This document shows, piece after piece, positions 7,509 to 34,478 of a stretch of DNA of 64,000 nt. This DNA is from Dehalococcoidia bacterium. GTDB lineage: Bacteria; Chloroflexota; Dehalococcoidia; DSTF01; WHTK01. The stretch spans positions 221,621 to 285,620 of the forward strand of contig CBDDBP010000007.1 in NCBI GenBank assembly GCA_965225815.1. Reading direction: 5' to 3'. The first letter of the stretch is position 1. Every line of letters starts with the position of its first letter. Under the pieces are notes generated by a model. It was not told where the DNA came from. It ran no database searches and was given only the letters and a program-made list of their open reading frames with translations. Made by a program: the position numbers and the translations under genes.

Positions 7509-7707
7509 TCAGGCGAGTTCGAATCGTGGTGGCCGGGAGCTTTGAAGCCGGGGGTGCCCGGACCCCACTGAAGGGGCAGAGGGGTTTTCTTAAGGCCGAA
7601 GTATCAGGCGAGCTCGAATCGCGCGGGTTCTAGCCAAGGCTTTGAAGCCGGGGGTGCCCCGGACCTCACTGAAGGGGCAGACAAGGGGTTTTCTTTAGGT
7701 CGAAGTA
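7509..7707. repeat. tandem direct repeats (~95 and ~104 bp). Each copy begins with a copy of the last ~25 nt, including the stop codon, of the adjacent MBL gene
   Basis: R1 runs 7509-7603, R2 7604-7707, and the gene terminus starts at 7708. The shared opening is tcaggcgag(t/c)tcgaatcg.... Each unit contains the 42-nt element gctttgaagccgggggtgccc(c)ggacc(c/t)cactgaaggggcag. Confidence 0.7.
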
Positions 7708-8679
7708 TCAGGCGAGTTCGAATCGCGGTGGCTCGATCCACTCGCCGGTTGGGGGATTCTCCTGGAGGAAGACGGCGCGGCGACGGTCCTGCTCGCGGTA
7801 TTCATCGGCCTGGCTCAGAACGGCCTCGCGAGTGGCGTGCTCGGCGGCTTCCTGCGCCGTTTCGGCGTCTGTGGGCTTGTGCGGCTTACCGGCGTGGAGC
7901 TGAAGGCGCCCCTCCTTGTCCAGCTTTGTGAGGTGACTCTGGACGTTGCGGTCGGCCGTGCGCCTGAGGCGGGAGTCGATGTCGGTGTAGATACGCTCCA
8001 TGATTTGCCAGCTGGTCAGCGGCTCGTCTTTAGAGAGTTCGGTGAGGATCTGTGACTCGCGTGTCTCGCGGTGCGAGATGTACTCGTTGATCAGGGCGGC
8101 TGGATTTTCGATCAGCGGGCCGTGGCCGGGGCAGATAAGGCGGAGGTTCGGCAGGGCCCTGAGGCGTCGCAGGCTCTGCATGTAGTCGGCTAGATCGTTG
8201 ACCGCGGTTGTGCTGCCGCCAAGGATCGTATCCCCGGTAAACAGCACGCCTTCCTCCTCGAGGTAGAAGCAGAGCGAGTCTGGGCTGTGTCCAGGCGTGT
8301 GCATGACCTGGAGACGGACGCCGCCGCCGGGACTGAGCGTGCCGCCTTCGAAGAGCGGGAGGACGTGGTCGGGCAGCTTGCCTTCGAGGCGGGATGCAGT
8401 CTCGGGCGAGACGTGGGCCTCGGCGTTGAACTCCTCGCAGACCCAGCGCAGGTTCGAGGAGTGGTCGAAGTGGAAGTGAGACAGCGCGCTGAGGCCAATC
8501 TCCGCCTTTTCGGTCGCGGCGAGATAACCGCGCAGCATCCAGCGGTAGCGGTCTTCATCGGCGCCGGTGTCTATGGCTAAGACCTGGTCTCGGCCGACGA
8601 GGTAAATCGTGGTGAACTGCGGGTGCATCGGGTCCGTCTCTGGGACCTGAACGGCACGGACGCTGGGGCTGACCTGCAT
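7708..8679 (-). CDS. MBL-fold metallo-hydrolase
   Basis: HFHFDHSSN (HxHxDH) and HTPGHSPDS motifs, followed by a C-terminal ~90 aa extension. Confidence 0.65.
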   Translation of the reverse strand: MQVSPSVRAVQVPETDPMHPQFTTIYLVGRDQVLAIDTGADEDRYRWMLRGYLAATEKAEIGLSALSHFHFDHSSNLRWVCEEFNAEAHVSPETASRLEGKLPDHVLPLFEGGTLSPGGGVRLQVMHTPGHSPDSLCFYLEEEGVLFTGDTILGGSTTAVNDLADYMQSLRRLRALPNLRLICPGHGPLIENPAALINEYISHRETRESQILTELSKDEPLTSWQIMERIYTDIDSRLRRTADRNVQSHLTKLDKEGRLQLHAGKPHKPTDAETAQEAAEHATREAVLSQADEYREQDRRRAVFLQENPPTGEWIEPPRFELA

Positions 8680-8691
8680 GACGCCCTCATT

Positions 8692-8723
8692 CTACGTGGC
8701 TACGTGGCTACGTGGCGGCGTGG
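8692..8723. repeat. tandem octamer CTACGTGG x3 (+ CGGCGTGG), 13 nt upstream of the MBL start codon (within its 5' UTR/promoter)
   Basis: Read directly from the sequence. Related (C/T)GTGGGTGG motifs recur at 11157-11233. Confidence 0.5.
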
Positions 8724-8834
8724 GATGCCGGGGCGCACGGTGGCCGAGTTAACGGCGGGTATAATTGCCAAGCCCGCCGAACGGAGGTTTTATTGGACCA
8801 GAGTCCGCAAGGGTCGCAGGCGCGCTTCAAAGTG

Positions 8835-9365
8835 ATGGTGCTCGGGCTGACCGCGATTCTGGTCTTTCTCTCGGTCGTGGGGTTGTTCCTCTACCTGAAG
8901 CCGGGTGCCGATAGTCCGACGCCGGAGGATCTGCCGGTTTTCGTGGCGGGGCCGGTAGAGGTTTTCGAGATAGGGACTGCCAGCTATTTCGAGCTTGAGC
9001 ACGTTTACATCGTCCGAATGGCCGGGGGCGGATTGCTGGCGCTTTACGACCTTGGGCCGGGAAGCCAGGCAGGCGTGAAGCAGGGCGACGAGTCAGCGCT
9101 GGACTGCCGGATTCAGTTCATCGAGGACGAAAACGGCTTGAATAGCCGGGGCGACCCACCGAAGGGCTTCGAGGCGATGGTGTTTTGGGACGCATGCCTG
9201 GGTAACGGCTGGGACGCTGCCGGACGGTACCTGACAGGCCCGGCCAACGGTGATCTCGATCGCTTTCCTGTCGGAGTTGCCGACGAGGCGGTCCAGGTGG
9301 ACGTGAATAATCGACGCTGCATGAATCACATTAGTCAGGCGGCGCCTTGCATACCAACGCAGTAA
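8835..9365 (+). CDS. membrane-anchored Rieske-like domain protein lacking His ligands
   Basis: N-terminal TM helix (MVLGLTAILVFLSVVGLFLYL), then a Rieske-fold pattern with DCRIQF in place of CxH and FWDACLGNGWDAAGRYLTGPA in place of CPCHGSxFDxxGxxxxGPA. Start is taken at the internal ATG 8835. Confidence 0.4.
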   Translation: MVLGLTAILVFLSVVGLFLYLKPGADSPTPEDLPVFVAGPVEVFEIGTASYFELEHVYIVRMAGGGLLALYDLGPGSQAGVKQGDESALDCRIQFIEDENGLNSRGDPPKGFEAMVFWDACLGNGWDAAGRYLTGPANGDLDRFPVGVADEAVQVDVNNRRCMNHISQAAPCIPTQ

Positions 9366-9388
9366 ATCTGAGGTAAAATGGCAGGGTC

Positions 9389-9676
9389 ATGATGTACGGC
9401 GGCGGCACACGCGATCTGGAAGCTGAGTACACGAAAGTCCTGGACGAGGCGCTAGAGACGCTACGATGGACCCGTCAGCACTTTCACGAGCCCAAGGCGA
9501 GCGACACGCTGCGCCAACTCCAGGGGAGACTGGGTTACCTGGCTCAATCGATGAATTGGCGCTCCGACGGCACGACCTCCGAGGCGGAGCAGGCGCTCGG
9601 CGTCGCGCAGGGCAAGTCGTTCAAGGAGCAGAGCAGCATCCGCCAGATGTGGGAAGAGATGTGGTGGTCGCACTGA
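9389..9676 (+). CDS. hypothetical protein (95 aa)
   Basis: Intact ORF. No motif recognised. Confidence 0.3.
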   Translation: MMYGGGTRDLEAEYTKVLDEALETLRWTRQHFHEPKASDTLRQLQGRLGYLAQSMNWRSDGTTSEAEQALGVAQGKSFKEQSSIRQMWEEMWWSH

Positions 9677-9732
9677 CCGTCACTCAGGGTGGCTGCGGGA
9701 CGGCGTAGGCTGCCGCTGACGCCGCACTGCCC

Positions 9733-11286
9733 GTGTTAGCTAACCCCAGTCCTTACGAAGCCCTCGATCAGATCCTAGAAACGTCAGGCAGAGCGCGGTC
9801 GCCGGAAGACCGCGTTTTCATTGACGGCGCGGATCCGGTCTTGCCGACGGCGTTTCGTTTGGGGACGGCTGGCGCGGCGGCGATCGCGGCGACTGGGCTG
9901 GCGGCGGCTGATTTATGGCAGCTGCGCAGCGGCCGAAGCCAGGACGTATCGGTCAGCCTGCGTGACGCTGCAGCGGTGATACGGAGCGATCGCTTCCTGC
10001 GCCTGGACGGTGAGGCGCCGCCATCGCCGTGGTCGCCGACGGCTGGCTTCTACCGGACGCGCGACGAGCGCTGGATCCAGGTCCACAGCAACTTTCCGCA
10101 TCACCTGGACGCCGCGCTGCGGGTCCTGGGCTGCGCGGGCGACCGGGACGCGGTATCGAAGGCCGTGGCCGGGTGGCAGGCGTTCGAGCTGGAGGATGCG
10201 CTGAATGACGCCGGGATGTGCGCCGCCGTGGTGCGTAGCGAGGCCGAGTGGCGCGAGGTGCCACAGGCGGAAGTCGTGGCCGGGCTGCCGCTGTTTGAGA
10301 TCGTGAAGCTGGGCGAGAGCGCGCCGGAGCCGTTGCCACCGGGCGACCGGCCGCTGGCGGGTGTGCGCGTGCTGGACCTGACGCGGGTGATCGCCGGGCC
10401 GGTGGGCGGACGGACGCTGGCGGCGCACGGGGCGGACGTGATGCGCGTGACGGGCGACCATCTGCCAGGCTTCCCGGAAAGCCTCGACATCGACATGGGG
10501 CACGGCAAACTATCGGCGAGCCTGGACCTGCGAAGCGCCGACGAGCGCGGGCGCCTTTTGGGACTGGTCGACGAGGCGGACGTGTTCTTGCAGTCGTACC
10601 GTCCGGGATCCCTGGCGGGACGGGGACTAGCGCCGGACGCGCTGGCTTCGCGGCGGCCGGGGCTGATCTACGCGACGCTGAGTGCCTACGGGCACGTTGG
10701 GCCGTGGCGGGAGCGGCGTGGCTTCGACAGTATCGTGCAGTCGATCAGCGGCATCGTGCATGAGGAGAGCGGTGACGGGCCGCCTCGACACATGCCGGCG
10801 CAGGCGCTGGACTACGTTTCGGGGTATGTGCTGGCGTTCGGGATCATGCGTGCCCTGGCGCGGCGGGCGGAGGAAGGCGGCAGCTACCTCGTGCGGGTGT
10901 CGCTGGCGCAGACCGGGGCATGGATTCAGGGTTTGGGCCGGGTGGCGTTTTCGGAGGCAGCCGCCGCGGACGACGACGTGCCGGCGCGGCTGGTGGAGAC
11001 GGAGTCGCCGTTCGGGGTGCTGCGGCACTTGGGGCCCGTTGTACGGCTGTCGGAGAGCGCGGCGCGGTGGGCGCGGCCGAGCGTGCCTTTGGGGTCCAGC
11101 GCGGCGGAATGGCGCCTCGTTAGCATTCGACGCCGAGGCTGGAAAGCCTCGGCTAAGTGGGTGGAGACGGGGCTATGTGGGAAAAGCCTCGGCGTCGTGG
11201 GTGGAGACGGGGCTACGTGGGTGGAGATTCGTGGCGAATGGTGTCAGGGCGGACTCTGCAGAAGGTGTAGGAACTCTGCAGGTTGA
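9733..11286 (+). CDS. CoA-transferase family III (CaiB/BaiF/Frc-like) protein with non-canonical motif order and a low-confidence C-terminal tail
   Basis: The family III N-terminal glycine-rich motif (PLAGVRVLDLTRVIAGP) sits at about residue 205. A catalytic-Asp region (QALDYVSGYVLAFGIMRAL) follows at about residue 390. The first ~200 aa resemble the post-Asp helices plus the small (middle) domain. The C-terminal ~60 aa read through tandem repeats. GTG start. Confidence 0.55.
   Translation: MLANPSPYEALDQILETSGRARSPEDRVFIDGADPVLPTAFRLGTAGAAAIAATGLAAADLWQLRSGRSQDVSVSLRDAAAVIRSDRFLRLDGEAPPSPWSPTAGFYRTRDERWIQVHSNFPHHLDAALRVLGCAGDRDAVSKAVAGWQAFELEDALNDAGMCAAVVRSEAEWREVPQAEVVAGLPLFEIVKLGESAPEPLPPGDRPLAGVRVLDLTRVIAGPVGGRTLAAHGADVMRVTGDHLPGFPESLDIDMGHGKLSASLDLRSADERGRLLGLVDEADVFLQSYRPGSLAGRGLAPDALASRRPGLIYATLSAYGHVGPWRERRGFDSIVQSISGIVHEESGDGPPRHMPAQALDYVSGYVLAFGIMRALARRAEEGGSYLVRVSLAQTGAWIQGLGRVAFSEAAAADDDVPARLVETESPFGVLRHLGPVVRLSESAARWARPSVPLGSSAAEWRLVSIRRRGWKASAKWVETGLCGKSLGVVGGDGATWVEIRGEWCQGGLCRRCRNSAG
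11142..11233. repeat. two ~39-bp tandem direct repeats (aagcctcggc(t/g)(a/t)(a/c)gtgggtggagacggggcta(t/c)gtggg) plus a partial third copy, inside the 3' end of the CoA-transferase ORF
   Basis: Read directly from the sequence. Confidence 0.6.
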
Positions 11287-11294
11287 ACCTGCAG
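11276..11294. other. perfect hairpin CTGCAGG-TTGAA-CCTGCAG straddling the CoA-transferase stop codon
   Basis: Seven-bp perfect inverted repeat. The TGA stop lies in the loop. No U-tract follows. Confidence 0.5.
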
Positions 11295-11377
11295 CCTGGG
11301 TGAGGGGGCGGTGCGGCGTTCGTGCGTGACACGAATGCGTGGTTAGTTTGACGCGCTGTCGAATCCCTCACCCTCAT

Positions 11378-11399
11378 CCGCTCCCCTGGTGGGGAGCGG
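11378..11399. other. perfect 9-bp stem-loop CCGCTCCCC-TGGT-GGGGAGCGG between convergent genes
   Basis: Read directly. No flanking T/A tract. Candidate factor-dependent terminator or RNA-stability hairpin. Confidence 0.45.
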
Positions 11400-11438
11400 G
11401 GATTGCGTTAGCTCTGGTTAGCGGTCAGGGCGCTCTCT

Positions 11439-11681
11439 TTACCAGAACTTCCACCAAGGCTTCTTGGGCGCATCGCCCATCATCATGCCGTGGTCCATGG
11501 GCTGCGAATGGTCGTACTCGGCCTCGGCTTTGAGGATGGCGGCGGGGTCTTCATCGAAGTCGAGCTTGCAGCCGCGACCGCAGAAGTAATACGTGACGCC
11601 TTCGTGCTCTGAAGTACCGGCGGCCGTGGCCGGGTCGATGTCCATGTGGCAAACGGGATCGTGTGCAGTCTCTGTTGTCAT
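11439..11681 (-). CDS. YHS/TRASH-type metal-binding domain protein with His/Met-rich C-terminus
   Basis: CHMDID...YYFCGRGCK matches the YHS-domain cysteine pattern. The tail is HSQPMDHGMMMGD. Confidence 0.5.
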   Translation of the reverse strand: MTTETAHDPVCHMDIDPATAAGTSEHEGVTYYFCGRGCKLDFDEDPAAILKAEAEYDHSQPMDHGMMMGDAPKKPWWKFW

Positions 11682-11767
11682 GGGAGCCTCCTAAAGAATG
11701 CGTTTTGATCATACTGCCCCGGCCAAGGCATGCGGTTGAGAGCGGCGAATCCTAAACTTGAGCTGAC

Positions 11768-12094
11768 ATGTTGTCTTTGCCACGAAGCGGCGCCCTGCGA
11801 TACGTAATCTGGCTACTGGCTCTGGTAGCGCTGCTTTACTCCGTGGTGCCGATCACCTACGGACTCTTTGGCGCTCCGCTGGGATTTCTTGTCACTGGAT
11901 TGATCCTGTTCGCCATAGGCTTTGGTCTTATCGTCAGACTGGCCCCGGGCAAGCCGTTGCTCTGGTTGGGGGTCGTACTGGTGGTCTACGGCTTTCCGTT
12001 TCTGTTCACGGCTCTCCCGCTTGGCCTTCCGCTTGTAATCGTCGGCGGCTGGGCCTGGTACAGGTCGGCGAGAGGGAAGCCGGCGCCTGTCTAG
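11768..12094 (+). CDS. hypothetical integral membrane protein (108 aa)
   Basis: Three or four predicted TM helices. No homology recognised. Confidence 0.35.
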   Translation: MLSLPRSGALRYVIWLLALVALLYSVVPITYGLFGAPLGFLVTGLILFAIGFGLIVRLAPGKPLLWLGVVLVVYGFPFLFTALPLGLPLVIVGGWAWYRSARGKPAPV

Positions 12095-12137
12095 CTCTGT
12101 TAGGGTTTGGCCGGAACGCGATACACTGGGGCTGTTC

Positions 12138-12407
12138 ATGCCGACTTCCAAAACCAAGGCAACGTTCGAGGATCTGTACCGCCAGCTGGAGGAGAAGGTC
12201 GCTCTGCTGGAGCAGGGTGGGCTCAGCCTGGATGAATCGCTGGCAGCCTACGAGAGCGCGGTGGGGCTGGCGCAGAAGTGCCAGCAGATGCTTGACGGCG
12301 CCGAACTTCGGATCACCAAGCTGAAGGAGACCATCGCGGCGGGCGCCGAAGCCTTCGAAACCGAGGACGAAGCGCTCATCGCGGTAGACGATGAGGACGA
12401 AGCGTGA
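12138..12407 (+). CDS. xseB: exodeoxyribonuclease VII small subunit XseB
   Basis: Length and sequence typical of XseB (FEDLYRQLEEKVALLEQGGLSLDESLAAYESAVGLAQKCQQ). Confidence 0.7.
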   Translation: MPTSKTKATFEDLYRQLEEKVALLEQGGLSLDESLAAYESAVGLAQKCQQMLDGAELRITKLKETIAAGAEAFETEDEALIAVDDEDEA

Positions 12408-13117
12408 AGCTACGCGCTGATTTCCATAGCCACAGCAACTACTCTCGCGATTCGGTGATCGGGCCGGAGTCGTTCGTCGCCAACTGCGTCCGCAAGGGCG
12501 TGACGTGTATCGCCGTGACGGACCACAACGAGATCGAAGGCGCGTTCGTGATCGAGAAGCTGGCGGCGGAACGCGCGGCGGGAAAACTCAAGGTTGTCGT
12601 CGGCGAAGAGGTAAAGACGGCCGAGGGCGAGATTATCGGCTTATTTCTCAAGGAGCTCGTAGCGCGCGACATGTCGCCCGAGGACACGATCGAGGCGATT
12701 CACGAGCAGGGTGGGCTCGCGGTGATCCCGCACCCCTATGACATCTTCCGGCGCTCCGTGTTGACGGACGAGGCGATCGAGCGCGTGAAGACGAAAGTTG
12801 ACGCGATCGAAGGCTTCAATTGCCGAAACATCCTGGGCAAGCACGACCAGAAGGCGCGAGCTACTGCCGCGGAGGTGTCGAAGCCGATCACGCTAGGGAC
12901 GGATTCGCACAGTCCGTGGGAGCTAGGCGGTGCGCTGCTGGAGCTGGACGATTTCGAGACGCCGGAAGAGCTGCTGCAGTCGTTGCCCGGCGGCCGAATA
13001 ATTGGACACCGGTCGCTGCCGATGGTGCATTGGGCCAGCACCTACGCAAAGATCCGCTGGCGATTGGGCTTGAAGCCGACGTATTCGTCCCCACCGCGGG
13101 CTGCGTCCAGCCGCTAA
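12404..13117 (+). CDS. PHP-domain metal-dependent phosphoesterase
   Basis: HSHSNYSRDS ... VTDHN ... PHPYD PHP motifs. GTG start overlaps the xseB stop. Confidence 0.6.
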   Translation: MKLRADFHSHSNYSRDSVIGPESFVANCVRKGVTCIAVTDHNEIEGAFVIEKLAAERAAGKLKVVVGEEVKTAEGEIIGLFLKELVARDMSPEDTIEAIHEQGGLAVIPHPYDIFRRSVLTDEAIERVKTKVDAIEGFNCRNILGKHDQKARATAAEVSKPITLGTDSHSPWELGGALLELDDFETPEELLQSLPGGRIIGHRSLPMVHWASTYAKIRWRLGLKPTYSSPPRAASSR

Positions 13118-13124
13118 CTTCGAA

Positions 13125-13712
13125 ATGACGATACGGCTGGCAGTTCTAGTCTCGGGCTCCGGCACGACGCTACAAAACTTCCTCGACCACATTGCGGACG
13201 GGCGTCTCGATGCGAGCGTTGAGGTCGTGATCAGCAGCAATTCGACGGCCTATGCGCTGGAGCGAGCCAAGGGCGCAGGCATCGACACACATGTCGTGAG
13301 GCGCCGCGACTTCGAATCGCAGGAAGCTTACAGCGAAGCGGTGACGGCGGTGCTGAAGGGCTATGACGTCGAGCTGATCGCCGCTGCGGGCTATACACAG
13401 CGGTACGTTTTCCCGGACCGTTTCGAGGGACGCATGTTGAATACTCACGGGGCGCTGCTGCCGAAGTTCGGCGGACAGGGCATGTGGGGGCATCACGTGC
13501 ACGAAGCCGTGCTGGCGGCAGGCGAGACGGAGTCCGGCTGCACGGTCCACATCGCCGATCACGAATACGACCGCGGGCCGGTGCTGGTGCAGAAGAAGGT
13601 GCCGGTGCTGCCGGACGATACGCCGGAGATGCTGGCGGCGCGGGTCCAGGAGGCGGAGCGCGAGGCGTATCCGGAGGCGATTCGTCTGATGGCGGCGAAG
13701 CTCGGGTTCTGA
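13125..13712 (+). CDS. purN: phosphoribosylglycinamide formyltransferase PurN
   Basis: LVSGSGTTLQNFLD ... formyl-transferase core with the conserved N/H/D catalytic region. Confidence 0.8.
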   Translation: MTIRLAVLVSGSGTTLQNFLDHIADGRLDASVEVVISSNSTAYALERAKGAGIDTHVVRRRDFESQEAYSEAVTAVLKGYDVELIAAAGYTQRYVFPDRFEGRMLNTHGALLPKFGGQGMWGHHVHEAVLAAGETESGCTVHIADHEYDRGPVLVQKKVPVLPDDTPEMLAARVQEAEREAYPEAIRLMAAKLGF

Positions 13713-13854
13713 TATGCCGGGCGCCAGGCAAGCTGAAGCTCAGGGGAGCCTTCGAACCAGGCGTGGCCGGACGAGAGAATTGCCCGAAAATGATAGTCTG
13801 AGGAACGATAGAAGACGTGACGGAGACTGATCGAAGAACGGGAGGAGTCAACGC

Positions 13855-15276
13855 ATGCTGAGCAAAGAAGACAACGAACTGTTGAGTCGAGTCGGTCCGG
13901 GGACGGCGATGGGCGATCTGATGCGTCAGTACTGGATCCCGGCGATCCGTTCAGACGAGCTGCCGGCCGGCGATTGCCCGCCGCTGCGGGTCAAACTGCT
14001 TGGCGAGGAGCTGATCGGCTATCGCACGACGTCCGGCAAAGTCGGCTTGATGCAGAACTCTTGCCCTCATCGGGGCGCATCGTTGTTCTTCGGCCGCAAC
14101 GAAGAGGAAGGCCTGCGCTGCGTCTACCACGGCTGGAAGTTCGACGTCACCGGCGCCTGCGTCGACATGCCGTCGGAGCCGGCGGAGTCGAATTTCAAAA
14201 GCAAGGTTCGAGCCAAGGCGTACCCGGCGTATGAGCACGGCGGCGTGATCTGGGCCTACATGGGCCCGCGCGAAGTGCCGCCGCCACTGCCGCAGATCGA
14301 GGCCTTCGTGGCGGCGGAGGGACCGCATCAGGTATCGGCGATCATGCGTCCTTGTAACTGGATGCAGGGCTGGGAAGGCGAGATGGACACGGTCCACGCG
14401 GCGTTCCTGCACTTTGGGGCGTCGAAGCCGGAGGACCAGCAGCCGGGCTCGTTCAACTTCTACCAATCGAATCAGCGCCACGCGAAGTTCAGCGTTGTCG
14501 AGACCGACTTCGGGACCTCCTACGGGGCCTACCGACCAGCCGAGGTGGACACGTACTACTGGCGCATGGCCCACATGCTGTTCCCGTTCTACGCGATGAT
14601 CCCCCAGGGCGAAATCGGCAAGGACGCGAAGATCGGCGCTTACGTGCCGATGGATGACGAGCACACGATGCACTGGGAGATTTTCCTGCGTCCCGAGGTG
14701 CTGGGCGGGCCTCAGCCTGATCGATCAGACGACCCGCGTGCCGCGGTCAAGAGCGCCAACCCGGGAGACGAGATCCAGGAGTTCGTCGACCAGCGACAGC
14801 AAGGTGGACGCGCTCCGGCCAGCGCCGGGCAGCCGACGGTTGGCAACAACCTGGGCCCGCTGCCGAACACGACCGGCTGGTACGGGCGCTTCAATCTGCC
14901 GCAGAACATGGGGAACGACTACATGATCGACCGTGAGGCTCAGCGTGCGTTGAAGAGCTTCACGGGCATCCCGGGGATACGTCAGCAGGACATGGCGGTG
15001 ACCGAGAGCATGGGGCCGATCTACAAGCGCTACAACGAGCACCTGGGCACGACGGACGCGATGATCATCCGCACCCGTCGCAAGTTGATCGCCTCGGCGA
15101 AGGCGCTACGCGATAACGGCGTGACGCCACCAGGGGTCGATAGCCCCGAGGTCTACCGTCAGCGCTCGGGCGAGTGCATCCTGCCCCGCGACGTCTTCTG
15201 GTGGGACGCGACGAAGCCGATGCGCGAGATTTTCGACGTAGCGGAGGTGCCGCCGGCGTTCGTCGCGGTGAAGTAG
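13855..15276 (+). CDS. Rieske [2Fe-2S] aromatic-ring-hydroxylating oxygenase, alpha-subunit-like
   Basis: Rieske motif CPHRGASL...CVYHGWKF, followed by a catalytic mononuclear-iron domain (about 470 aa). RBS GGAGGAG upstream. Confidence 0.7.
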   Translation: MLSKEDNELLSRVGPGTAMGDLMRQYWIPAIRSDELPAGDCPPLRVKLLGEELIGYRTTSGKVGLMQNSCPHRGASLFFGRNEEEGLRCVYHGWKFDVTGACVDMPSEPAESNFKSKVRAKAYPAYEHGGVIWAYMGPREVPPPLPQIEAFVAAEGPHQVSAIMRPCNWMQGWEGEMDTVHAAFLHFGASKPEDQQPGSFNFYQSNQRHAKFSVVETDFGTSYGAYRPAEVDTYYWRMAHMLFPFYAMIPQGEIGKDAKIGAYVPMDDEHTMHWEIFLRPEVLGGPQPDRSDDPRAAVKSANPGDEIQEFVDQRQQGGRAPASAGQPTVGNNLGPLPNTTGWYGRFNLPQNMGNDYMIDREAQRALKSFTGIPGIRQQDMAVTESMGPIYKRYNEHLGTTDAMIIRTRRKLIASAKALRDNGVTPPGVDSPEVYRQRSGECILPRDVFWWDATKPMREIFDVAEVPPAFVAVK

Positions 15277-25626: not shown

Positions 25627-25754
25627 GCGGGCCTCCGGTGCGGCGCGAGACGCGTCTTTGCGTACCTACGAATCGTAGGCAGCACGACACGCCGCGGCGA
25701 CCGCGACTATGAGGAGGAACGGAGGACTGTCTGGGGAATCGCGAAGTCTTCGCG

Positions 25755-25960
25755 ATGCACGTCGGCGCAGTTTTGTCGGGAGCTTGCGCATCCCGGTTTG
25801 TCTGCGACGTTACGACTGTGCCAGCCGAGAGGCCACCCGCCGAGTTTTTCGAAGAGCCTCTTCCTCGTCATCCGATTGGCTTTGAAAGCCCGGGGACACC
25901 CCGGACCCCGCTAAAGGGGGTTACAAAGCTGGCAAATCTTCAATCGGACCTGGCGCTTTC
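25755..25960 (-). ncRNA. glmS_ribozyme: glmS ribozyme (glucosamine-6-phosphate-activated self-cleaving ribozyme) in the glmS 5' UTR
   Basis: The minus strand reads A|GCGCCAGG..., then ...UGACGAGGAAGAGGCUCUUCGAAAAACUCGGCGGGUGGCCUCUCGGCUG...GUAACG...CAAACCGGGAUGCGCAAGCUCCCGACAAAAC. The GACGAGG-AGG-UUCGAA-UCGGCGG-UG-CCUC-CGGCUG core and the CAAACC...GACAAA P4 region match the conserved glmS ribozyme pattern. It ends about 130 nt upstream of the glmS ATG. Confidence 0.7.
25879..25929. repeat. copy of the ~45-nt dispersed element (gctttgaaagcccggggacaccccggaccccgctaaagggggttacaaagc) embedded between the ribozyme's 5' AGCGCC and the GACGAGG core
   Basis: About 80% identical to the element at 7539-7579 and 7639-7680. 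In the minus-strand transcript it can fold as GCUUUG...CAAAGC closing two GC hairpins. Confidence 0.5.
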
Positions 25961-26148
25961 AGAACGACAGTCCCTGGGTCAACCTCCCTATCGAGTTGCT
26001 GGAAGTGAATATAGCACGGGTCGAACAGACCGGTAGTCAGGTGGTTCAGGGACAGGGCGGAGGGCGCCAAAGCGCTGGATGCCGAAGGGAGGGGTATATA
26101 CGCAGCTCGAGGAAGCGTCGGGAGGCGCGGCCAGCGCGTTTGAAGACG

Positions 26149-34220: not shown

Positions 34221-34250
34221 TTGTCCTGACGCCAGCGCCGCACCTATACT
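34221..34250 (+). promoter_or_regulatory. candidate sigma-70-type promoter (TTGTCC - 18 nt - TATACT) for the riboswitch-btuFCD transcript
   Basis: Hexamers read directly from the sequence. Spacing is 18 nt. Predicted TSS is about 34257. Confidence 0.3.
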
Positions 34251-34257
34251 GCCGTCA

Positions 34258-34478
34258 CGTCATGGGTGTCCCTCTTGCAAGCGAGGGAGTAAATGCGAAG
34301 CCGGTCAAAAATCCGGCGCTGTCCCGCAACTGTAGCCCCGAAAACGATTCGGGGGAGCCAGGCCGCCAGCCCGTGACGATGTCTCTGGAAGCCTCCGTGG
34401 AGGGGCCGAGACATCGTCTGAGCCAAGGCATAAGACGATTCGCCCCCGGCCCCATAGAGGCCGGGGTTTTGTTTTGCG
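34258..34478 (+). ncRNA. cobalamin (AdoCbl) riboswitch with intrinsic-terminator expression platform
   Basis: GCGAGGGAG...GCGAAGCCGGUCAAAAAUCCGGCGCUGUCCCGCAACUGUAGCC...GGGGGAGCCAGGCCGCCAGC contains the conserved cobalamin-riboswitch blocks (GGUxAAAAUCC, GCUGxCCCGCAACUGUA, AGCCAGG B12-box region). It is followed by the hairpin CCCCGGCC-CCAUAGA-GGCCGGGG plus UUUUGUUUU at 34444-34476. It lies upstream of a BtuF-like binding-protein gene. Confidence 0.7.
34444..34476 (+). terminator. intrinsic terminator (8-bp GC stem + TTTTGTTTT) forming the riboswitch OFF-state
   Basis: Read directly from the sequence. Confidence 0.65.

Follow-up and report, generated by a model that had tools for sequence, protein, structure and literature searches.

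A rearranged subfamily of family III CoA-transferases with a proposed single-chain pseudo-dimer fold and a frameshifted C-terminal tail in a Dehalococcoidia bacterium

The DNA analyzed here, referred to as the window, is a stretch of 64,000 nucleotides from a Dehalococcoidia bacterium (GenBank assembly GCA_965225815.1, contig CBDDBP010000007.1, positions 221,621 to 285,620). A gene in the window with a GTG start (9733..11286, +) encodes a protein related to family III coenzyme A (CoA)-transferases in which the family's modules occur in a new order. Taken as a whole, the locus is probably best explained by a rearranged family III subfamily that may have arisen by tandem fusion and would form a pseudo-dimer in cis, with a frameshifted tail added to the copy in the window. 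Family III CoA-transferases are the standard example of an interlocked dimer, in which ring-shaped chains thread through one another and share their active sites. The canonical chain runs from a Rossmann part through the catalytic aspartate and a long helix to a small domain and ends in a C-terminal block; two linkers close the chain into a ring, and the partner chain threads through it.

Family membership and module order

The Pfam CoA_transf_3 profile (PF02515) matches the full open reading frame (ORF) in two separate stretches, at 188.9 bits (cut-off 23.3). The better stretch, residues 208–400, corresponds to positions 1–204 of the 366 in the profile, and the family III N-terminal motif (PLAGVRVLDLTRVIAGP) has its first residue at 207. 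An earlier note, made from this sequence alone, had located the motif far inside the protein at about residue 205, and the profile alignment agrees. NCBIfam and PDB sequence searches likewise identify residues ~205–418 as the Rossmann-type part with which family III CoA-transferases begin, and the best PDB sequence match is Mycobacterium tuberculosis Rv3272 (5yit, E=3.7e-32). The Rossmann-type part of the large domain, with its CoA-binding motifs, is assigned by the Pfam, NCBIfam, and PDB comparisons to residues 206–400 (10348..10932, +), and the protein has the Rossmann-type large domain fold that characterizes family III. The predicted catalytic residue is Asp360 (GAC codon, 10810..10812, +), which aligns with the Asp175 that is mutated to alanine in the Rv3272 entry 5yiy (D175A). 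Asp360 sits at the N terminus of a long central helix, as in family III, and is unchanged in 143 of 143 family sequences. Asp332, Gln336, Gly364, His118, and Trp173 are also invariant or nearly so in this set. The gene product is expected to carry out chemistry of the family III type: it would either transfer CoA by way of an anhydride/thioester bound to Asp360 or catalyze a related reaction on a CoA thioester (racemase, isomerase, or lyase).

The region ahead of the Rossmann part is homologous to a portion of the canonical enzymes that normally follows it. Residues 1–205 (9733..10347, +), scanned alone against PF02515, score 31.4 bits (gathering score 23.3, E=1.4e-7), and residues 39–178 align with profile positions 158–322, which comprise the post-Asp helix, the next strand, and the small domain. 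The likeness of the first ~200 residues to the post-Asp helices and small domain had been proposed in the earlier note and is borne out by this match. An independent hidden Markov model (HMM) built only from Escherichia coli Frc and YfdE reproduces this arrangement in family members: HMM positions 183–214 fall at residues ~50–81 and are followed by HMM positions 8–207 at residues ~202–393. Profile–profile comparison with hhalign of the N-terminal region against a five-sequence canonical profile aligns residues 43–184 colinearly with YfdE 171–337 (probability 85%, E=6.5e-6), at an identity to canonical enzymes of ~20%.

The module order is profile positions 158–322, then 1–204, then the C-terminal block, and the alignment to PF02515 does not contain a single colinear CoA_transf_3 domain. 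The profile segment ~158–204, the post-Asp helix and strand, occurs twice. The first helix copy spans residues 43–66 (9859..9930, +), as located by the secondary structure of the AlphaFold2 model, the hhalign columns, and column counts. The column of the canonical catalytic aspartate is occupied by Thr45 in this copy and by Thr, Ala, Glu, or Ser across the 143 family sequences; Asp360 is invariant, and the N-terminal helix copy is therefore taken to be vestigial. The second post-Asp helix lies at residues ~358–398, so that the duplication described in the earlier note stands but its position for the second copy (400–440) does not. The intact form of the protein continues for just 63 residues past residue 400, and these align with the canonical C-terminal GxPxKxS...PxLG block (family FG-xLRHLxPxxxLSETP..W.RP..PLG versus canonical G.....G.P.K.S........P.LGEH). 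The C-terminal block of the large domain (residues 401–460, 10933..11112, +, including FGVLRHLGPVVRLSESAARWARPSVPLG) directly follows the Rossmann part with no small domain between them, as expected from the suggestion that the second unit skips the middle domain. An hhalign comparison of residues 396–463 with the canonical enzymes was not significant. The comparison of the N-terminal module with the C-terminal part of the same protein was also not significant (E=0.29), though it paired the two post-Asp helices.

A strict circular permutation of the family III fold was considered and rejected, given the two copies of the post-Asp helix and strand and the unmoved C-terminal block; the idea of a circularly-permuted-like enzyme thus holds for the non-colinear order and fails for permutation in the strict sense. 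In the best description of its layout, the protein amounts to roughly one and a half canonical chains, [helix'-strand'-small domain'] + [Rossmann-helix-C block]. In full, it consists of a vestigial helix and strand without the aspartate, a small domain, a proline-rich linker, the Rossmann part, Asp360 and its helix, and the C-terminal block, with the internal small domain absent. Judged by these sequence alignments, the assignment of a rearranged architecture is solid.

The canonical reference for this comparison is Rv3272 (PDB 5yit, 5yx6; D175A mutant 5yiy), which has the colinear order with a central small domain. The window protein instead places its small domain N-terminally, after the vestigial helix, and has none in the middle; ~248 of its 463 residues superpose on Rv3272. 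It shares PF02515 and the Rossmann-type large domain with Frc/YfdW, YfdE, CaiB, BbsEF, SUGCT, mesaconyl-CoA transferase, and alpha-methylacyl-CoA racemase, and has in common with canonical family III enzymes an aspartate that starts a long helix, the same small-domain fold, and the C-terminal GxPxKxS..PxLG block. It differs from them in the reordering of these modules, with which an interlocked ring would be impossible.

Conservation within the N-terminal module is concentrated in polar and aromatic positions. Among the 143 sequences, His118 and Trp173 are present in all, Gln70 and Arg168 in 142, Asn120 in 138, and His124 and Arg84 in 137. His118, Asn120, and His124 belong to the motif H-x-N-F-P-H-H at residues 118–124 of the small-domain-like module (10084..10104, +), which is almost invariant in these sequences from several phyla. 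The conserved polar residues argue that the N-terminal module is functional. The three clustered histidines of the motif could form a substrate- or metal-binding site specific to the subfamily, and the motif may define a new substrate pocket.

Distribution of the architecture

In a large protein search, significant matches numbered more than 7,795, and nearly all of the best 120 are 457–485 residues long and span the whole intact protein. The same layout is found at 45–85% identity in thousands of proteins from Chloroflexota, Alpha- and Betaproteobacteria, and Methylomirabilota. A pattern scan limited to one genome per species located the architecture at no fewer than 598 loci (species genomes), with hosts that include Dehalococcoidia and other Chloroflexota, Bradyrhizobium, Afipia, Reyranella, Paraburkholderia, Ralstonia, and Methylomirabilota, among others. 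Searching with a profile of the N-terminal module alone yielded 3,216 clusters at 50% identity, 1,979 of them at E <= 1e-10, and in the representatives the module always precedes the Rossmann part. Four proteins in which the module seemed to be oddly positioned (P0133, P0196, P0211, and P0164) have the same layout preceded by low-complexity or over-called N-terminal extensions. The N-terminal 200 residues were encoded as a separate upstream gene in no ortholog.

No description of a rearranged or monomeric family III enzyme was found in the literature, and the PDB comparisons returned no solved structure with the rearranged layout. In the databases these proteins carry the generic name "CoA transferase". 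The subfamily amounts to thousands of uncharacterized enzymes of soil and marine Chloroflexota and Proteobacteria behind that label, and probably has its own substrate class.

Predicted fold, origin, and alternatives

The AlphaFold2 model of the intact 463-residue protein (P0001, 85-sequence alignment) is compact, with a predicted local distance difference test score (pLDDT) of 94.7 and a predicted template modeling score (pTM) of 0.95. When the N-terminal module is modeled alone, its defined arrangement is lost (pTM 0.48), which is consistent with docking of the module on the large domain. In the models, the two halves each resemble a different part of one fold, and the arrangement of the N-terminal module is fixed only when the large domain is present.

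Canonical family III enzymes have a composite active site and an interlocked dimer (PMC9196870), and the layout of the window protein suggests how such a site could be formed within one chain. The N-terminal piece contains, contiguously, a helix, strand, helix, linker, and small domain, which is what the partner chain supplies, and it is followed by a large domain without a small domain of its own. The N-terminal module would then be the remnant of a second subunit that has lost its catalytic aspartate. In the proposed arrangement, helix 43–66 packs on helix 358–381 as at the canonical two-fold interface, and the small domain, with the invariant HxNFPHH motif, Arg168, and Trp173, would be placed over the Asp360 active site of the same chain. 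The predicted outcome is a non-interlocked single-chain pseudo-dimer with one active site. In the model, the position of the small domain on a single tether speaks against a closed ring, and hence against interlocking: held by one linker only, the small domain could not complete the ring. This mechanism is plausible. Whether it represents a natural un-interlocking of the family III fold, in which a tandem fusion minus one Rossmann part and one small domain became a monomeric single-site enzyme, is an evenly balanced question. If so, an entangled fold was resolved in evolution by rebuilding a family III active site within a single chain that holds roughly one and a half subunits, and the result would offer a simpler scaffold for CoA-transferase engineering.

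By analogy with DddD, it may be conjectured that two family III units were fused in tandem long ago and that the fusion then shed its first Rossmann part and its second small domain. DddD, a dimethylsulfoniopropionate CoA-transferase/lyase, has two tandem CaiB domains at residues 1–416 and 439–821 (PMC7174347). It shows that a polypeptide can hold more than one family III unit and is a plausible model of the ancestral state. DddD retains two complete units in ~820 residues, whereas the window protein has about one and a half in ~463 residues with reciprocal losses; the two are likened through the published description of DddD. The proposal in the earlier note that a 5'-truncated gene copy fused with a middle-deleted copy survives as a plausible ancient origin, but not as a recent or local event, as orthologs with the layout occur in several phyla.

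The strongest competitor to the cis pseudo-dimer is a non-interlocked homodimer in which the N-terminal small domain completes its partner's active site in trans and the vestigial helix acts as a spacer. Every characterized family III enzyme is a dimer with trans-completed sites (PMC9196870), which gives this alternative some weight. We nonetheless regard it as unlikely: the helix-strand-linker-small-domain unit has been kept contiguous and resembles a partner chain, the model of the monomer is compact and confident, in contrast to that of the N-terminal module by itself (pTM 0.95 versus 0.48), and the ring that interlocking requires could not be closed by one tether. A different possibility is that the likeness of the first 200 residues to the small domain is fortuitous and that they form an accessory domain unrelated to it, with a regulatory or substrate-binding role, for instance. 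The low identity to canonical enzymes in this region (~20%) would suit such a domain, and we consider it very improbable beside the colinear profile alignment to YfdE. Lower still is the probability of a genome-specific in-frame fusion, by assembly chimera or stop loss, of a 5'-truncated and a middle-deleted copy. The content of the protein does resemble parts of two copies, with profile positions 158–204 present twice. A recent local fusion or assembly chimera is refuted because thousands of orthologs share the layout and the length of ~457–485 residues; the conservation of the linker and of residues in both modules and the compact model (pTM 0.95) also stand against it.

Three results weigh against the account of a rearranged cis pseudo-dimer subfamily derived by tandem fusion. 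None of the seven NCBIfam equivalog models compared, which include those for Frc, YfdE, CaiB, and the succinate-glutarate and mesaconyl-CoA transferases, reached its cut-off; the scores were 19–82 bits against cut-offs of 413–750, the best being 82.1 against 522. No intermediate architectures were present among the top 150 representatives of the profile search. When 707 flanking ORFs from 80 loci were clustered, none occurred in more than 10 loci, and there is no conserved neighbor gene; the gene neighborhood therefore provides no hint of the substrate.

Frameshifted tail, sister-strain lesions, and surroundings

The ORF in the window has 517 codons and a TGA stop (9733..11286, +), and the G+C content of the gene is 71%. 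Orthologs with an intact frame all end in ...PLG(S/H)xxxW-P-x-R* at ~463 residues. The alignment of orthologs and the DNA alignment with the near-identical strain L001 (99.76% identical DNA) define an ancestral coding region of 463 codons that ends ...AEWPPR and is followed by TAG (9733..11123, +). In the window this region is broken by a C missing after 11112: L001 reads TGG CCG CCT CGT TAG and the window reads TGG CGC CTC GTT AGC. The deletion site (11112..11113, +) is TGGCCGCC in L001 and L084 and TGGCGCC in the window, a change of CC to C. The ancestral TAG (11121..11123, +), three codons past the deletion, is now out of frame, and translation continues through a tail of 57 codons (11113..11286, +) to the TGA at 11284–11286. 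The last three residues (PPR) are swapped for 57 residues read from structured, repeat-containing intergenic DNA. The tail is conserved in no intact-frame ortholog and has no Pfam match. The length of 517 residues is spurious, because one C is missing before the ancestral TAG, and the tail is the result of this 1-nucleotide deletion; the doubt that the earlier note cast on the annotated C terminus was justified. Annotation of the locus should give either 463 codons or a disrupted gene, and treat the 517-residue product as a frameshift artifact or lesion.

Other near-identical assemblies differ in the same gene, which is called at 463, 368, 319, 517, and 517 residues. L084 has an inserted T that shifts the frame (L084 3024, window 10033) and a 9-bp in-frame deletion (L084 3750, window 10758–10766), and its flanking genes are free of indels. 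The lesions in L084, P0002, and P0122 are independent (the +T frameshift, the 9-bp in-frame deletion, a G-run deletion, and an N-terminal truncation), and the neighboring genes are intact. Within the 6.4 kb common to three assemblies, three of four indels fall in the 1.39-kb gene and none in neighboring genes (binomial estimate ~0.03). The sole indel outside the CoA-transferase gene in this shared region (window 7689–14123) is an intergenic A-run at window 13174, which is AAAA in the window and L084 and AAA in L001. The independent lesions suggest decay or repeated assembly errors. Their pattern suggests that selection on the gene has been relaxed in this lineage, with repeated homopolymer errors as the alternative, and the gene may be decaying in the species.

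A sequencing or assembly error in the CC run, with the intact 463-codon form as the real gene, has a probability only a little short of even. Several lesions add or remove one base in a short homopolymer run (CC to C, GGGG to GGG, T to TT), five near-identical assemblies give five gene calls (463/368/319/517/517 residues), and megabase contigs from metagenomes would suggest long-read data. The 9-bp in-frame deletion in L084 is not a typical read error, and the clustering of indels (~0.03) fits relaxed selection better than random error. That the 57-residue repeat-containing tail is instead a genuine functional C-terminal extension is highly improbable. P0123 and P0002, both from near-identical assemblies, are also 517 residues long with the same tail, but P0002 enters the frame by losing another base, near residue 395 (a -1 deletion, GGGG to GGG), and ~65 of its conserved residues are scrambled as a result. 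The TAG ends the reading frame in L001, in L084, and in every more distant ortholog, and the tail, which lacks a Pfam match, overlies a structured convergent intergenic region. Programmed frameshifting and a functional repeat tail were both discarded as candidates, as different lesions in different strains reach the tail frame and orthologs have no tail.

The gene is preceded by two small hypothetical genes and faces a convergent YHS-domain gene (11439–11681, −). The convergent intergenic region between them (11124–11438) is significantly more stably folded than shuffled sequence on both strands (z = -3.2 on the + strand and -5.1 on the − strand) and contains several hairpins. A perfect 13-bp inverted repeat (arms 11128–11140 and 11185–11197; 11128..11197) includes the local hairpin GCCGAGGCT-GGAA-AGCCTCGGC, just past the ancestral stop. 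Two 40-bp tandem repeat units with 89% matches and a nested period of ~20 bp occupy 11143..11221; the tandem repeats noted earlier are thus present as two units, but the size and extent given for them (39 bp, 11142–11233) are revised. The 20-bp unit was found nowhere else in the window. The 57-codon tail traverses both the 13-bp inverted repeat and the 40-bp units and, as previously recognized, stops inside a CTGCAGG-TTGAA-CCTGCAG hairpin (11276..11294), with the TGA in its loop. A terminator scan detected weak consensus sites only, no more than expected by chance, and an Rfam search of 9000–12200 with E up to 1 returned nothing. The intergenic region could be a bidirectional terminator.

Elsewhere in the 64 kb, two RNA elements score above the Rfam gathering thresholds, a glmS ribozyme (25753–25968, −, 79 bits) and a cobalamin riboswitch (34247–34388, +, 60.6 bits), and no tRNA genes were detected. 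Similarity to L001 ends at window 7689 and similarity to L084 at 7539, next to a gene for a metallo-beta-lactamase-fold protein (7708–8679). Beyond the breakpoint, L001 1–1957 carries an IS1595-family transposase in two ORFs and an N6/N4 DNA methylase, and the breakpoint at window ~7689 marks a strain-variable region or an insertion boundary.
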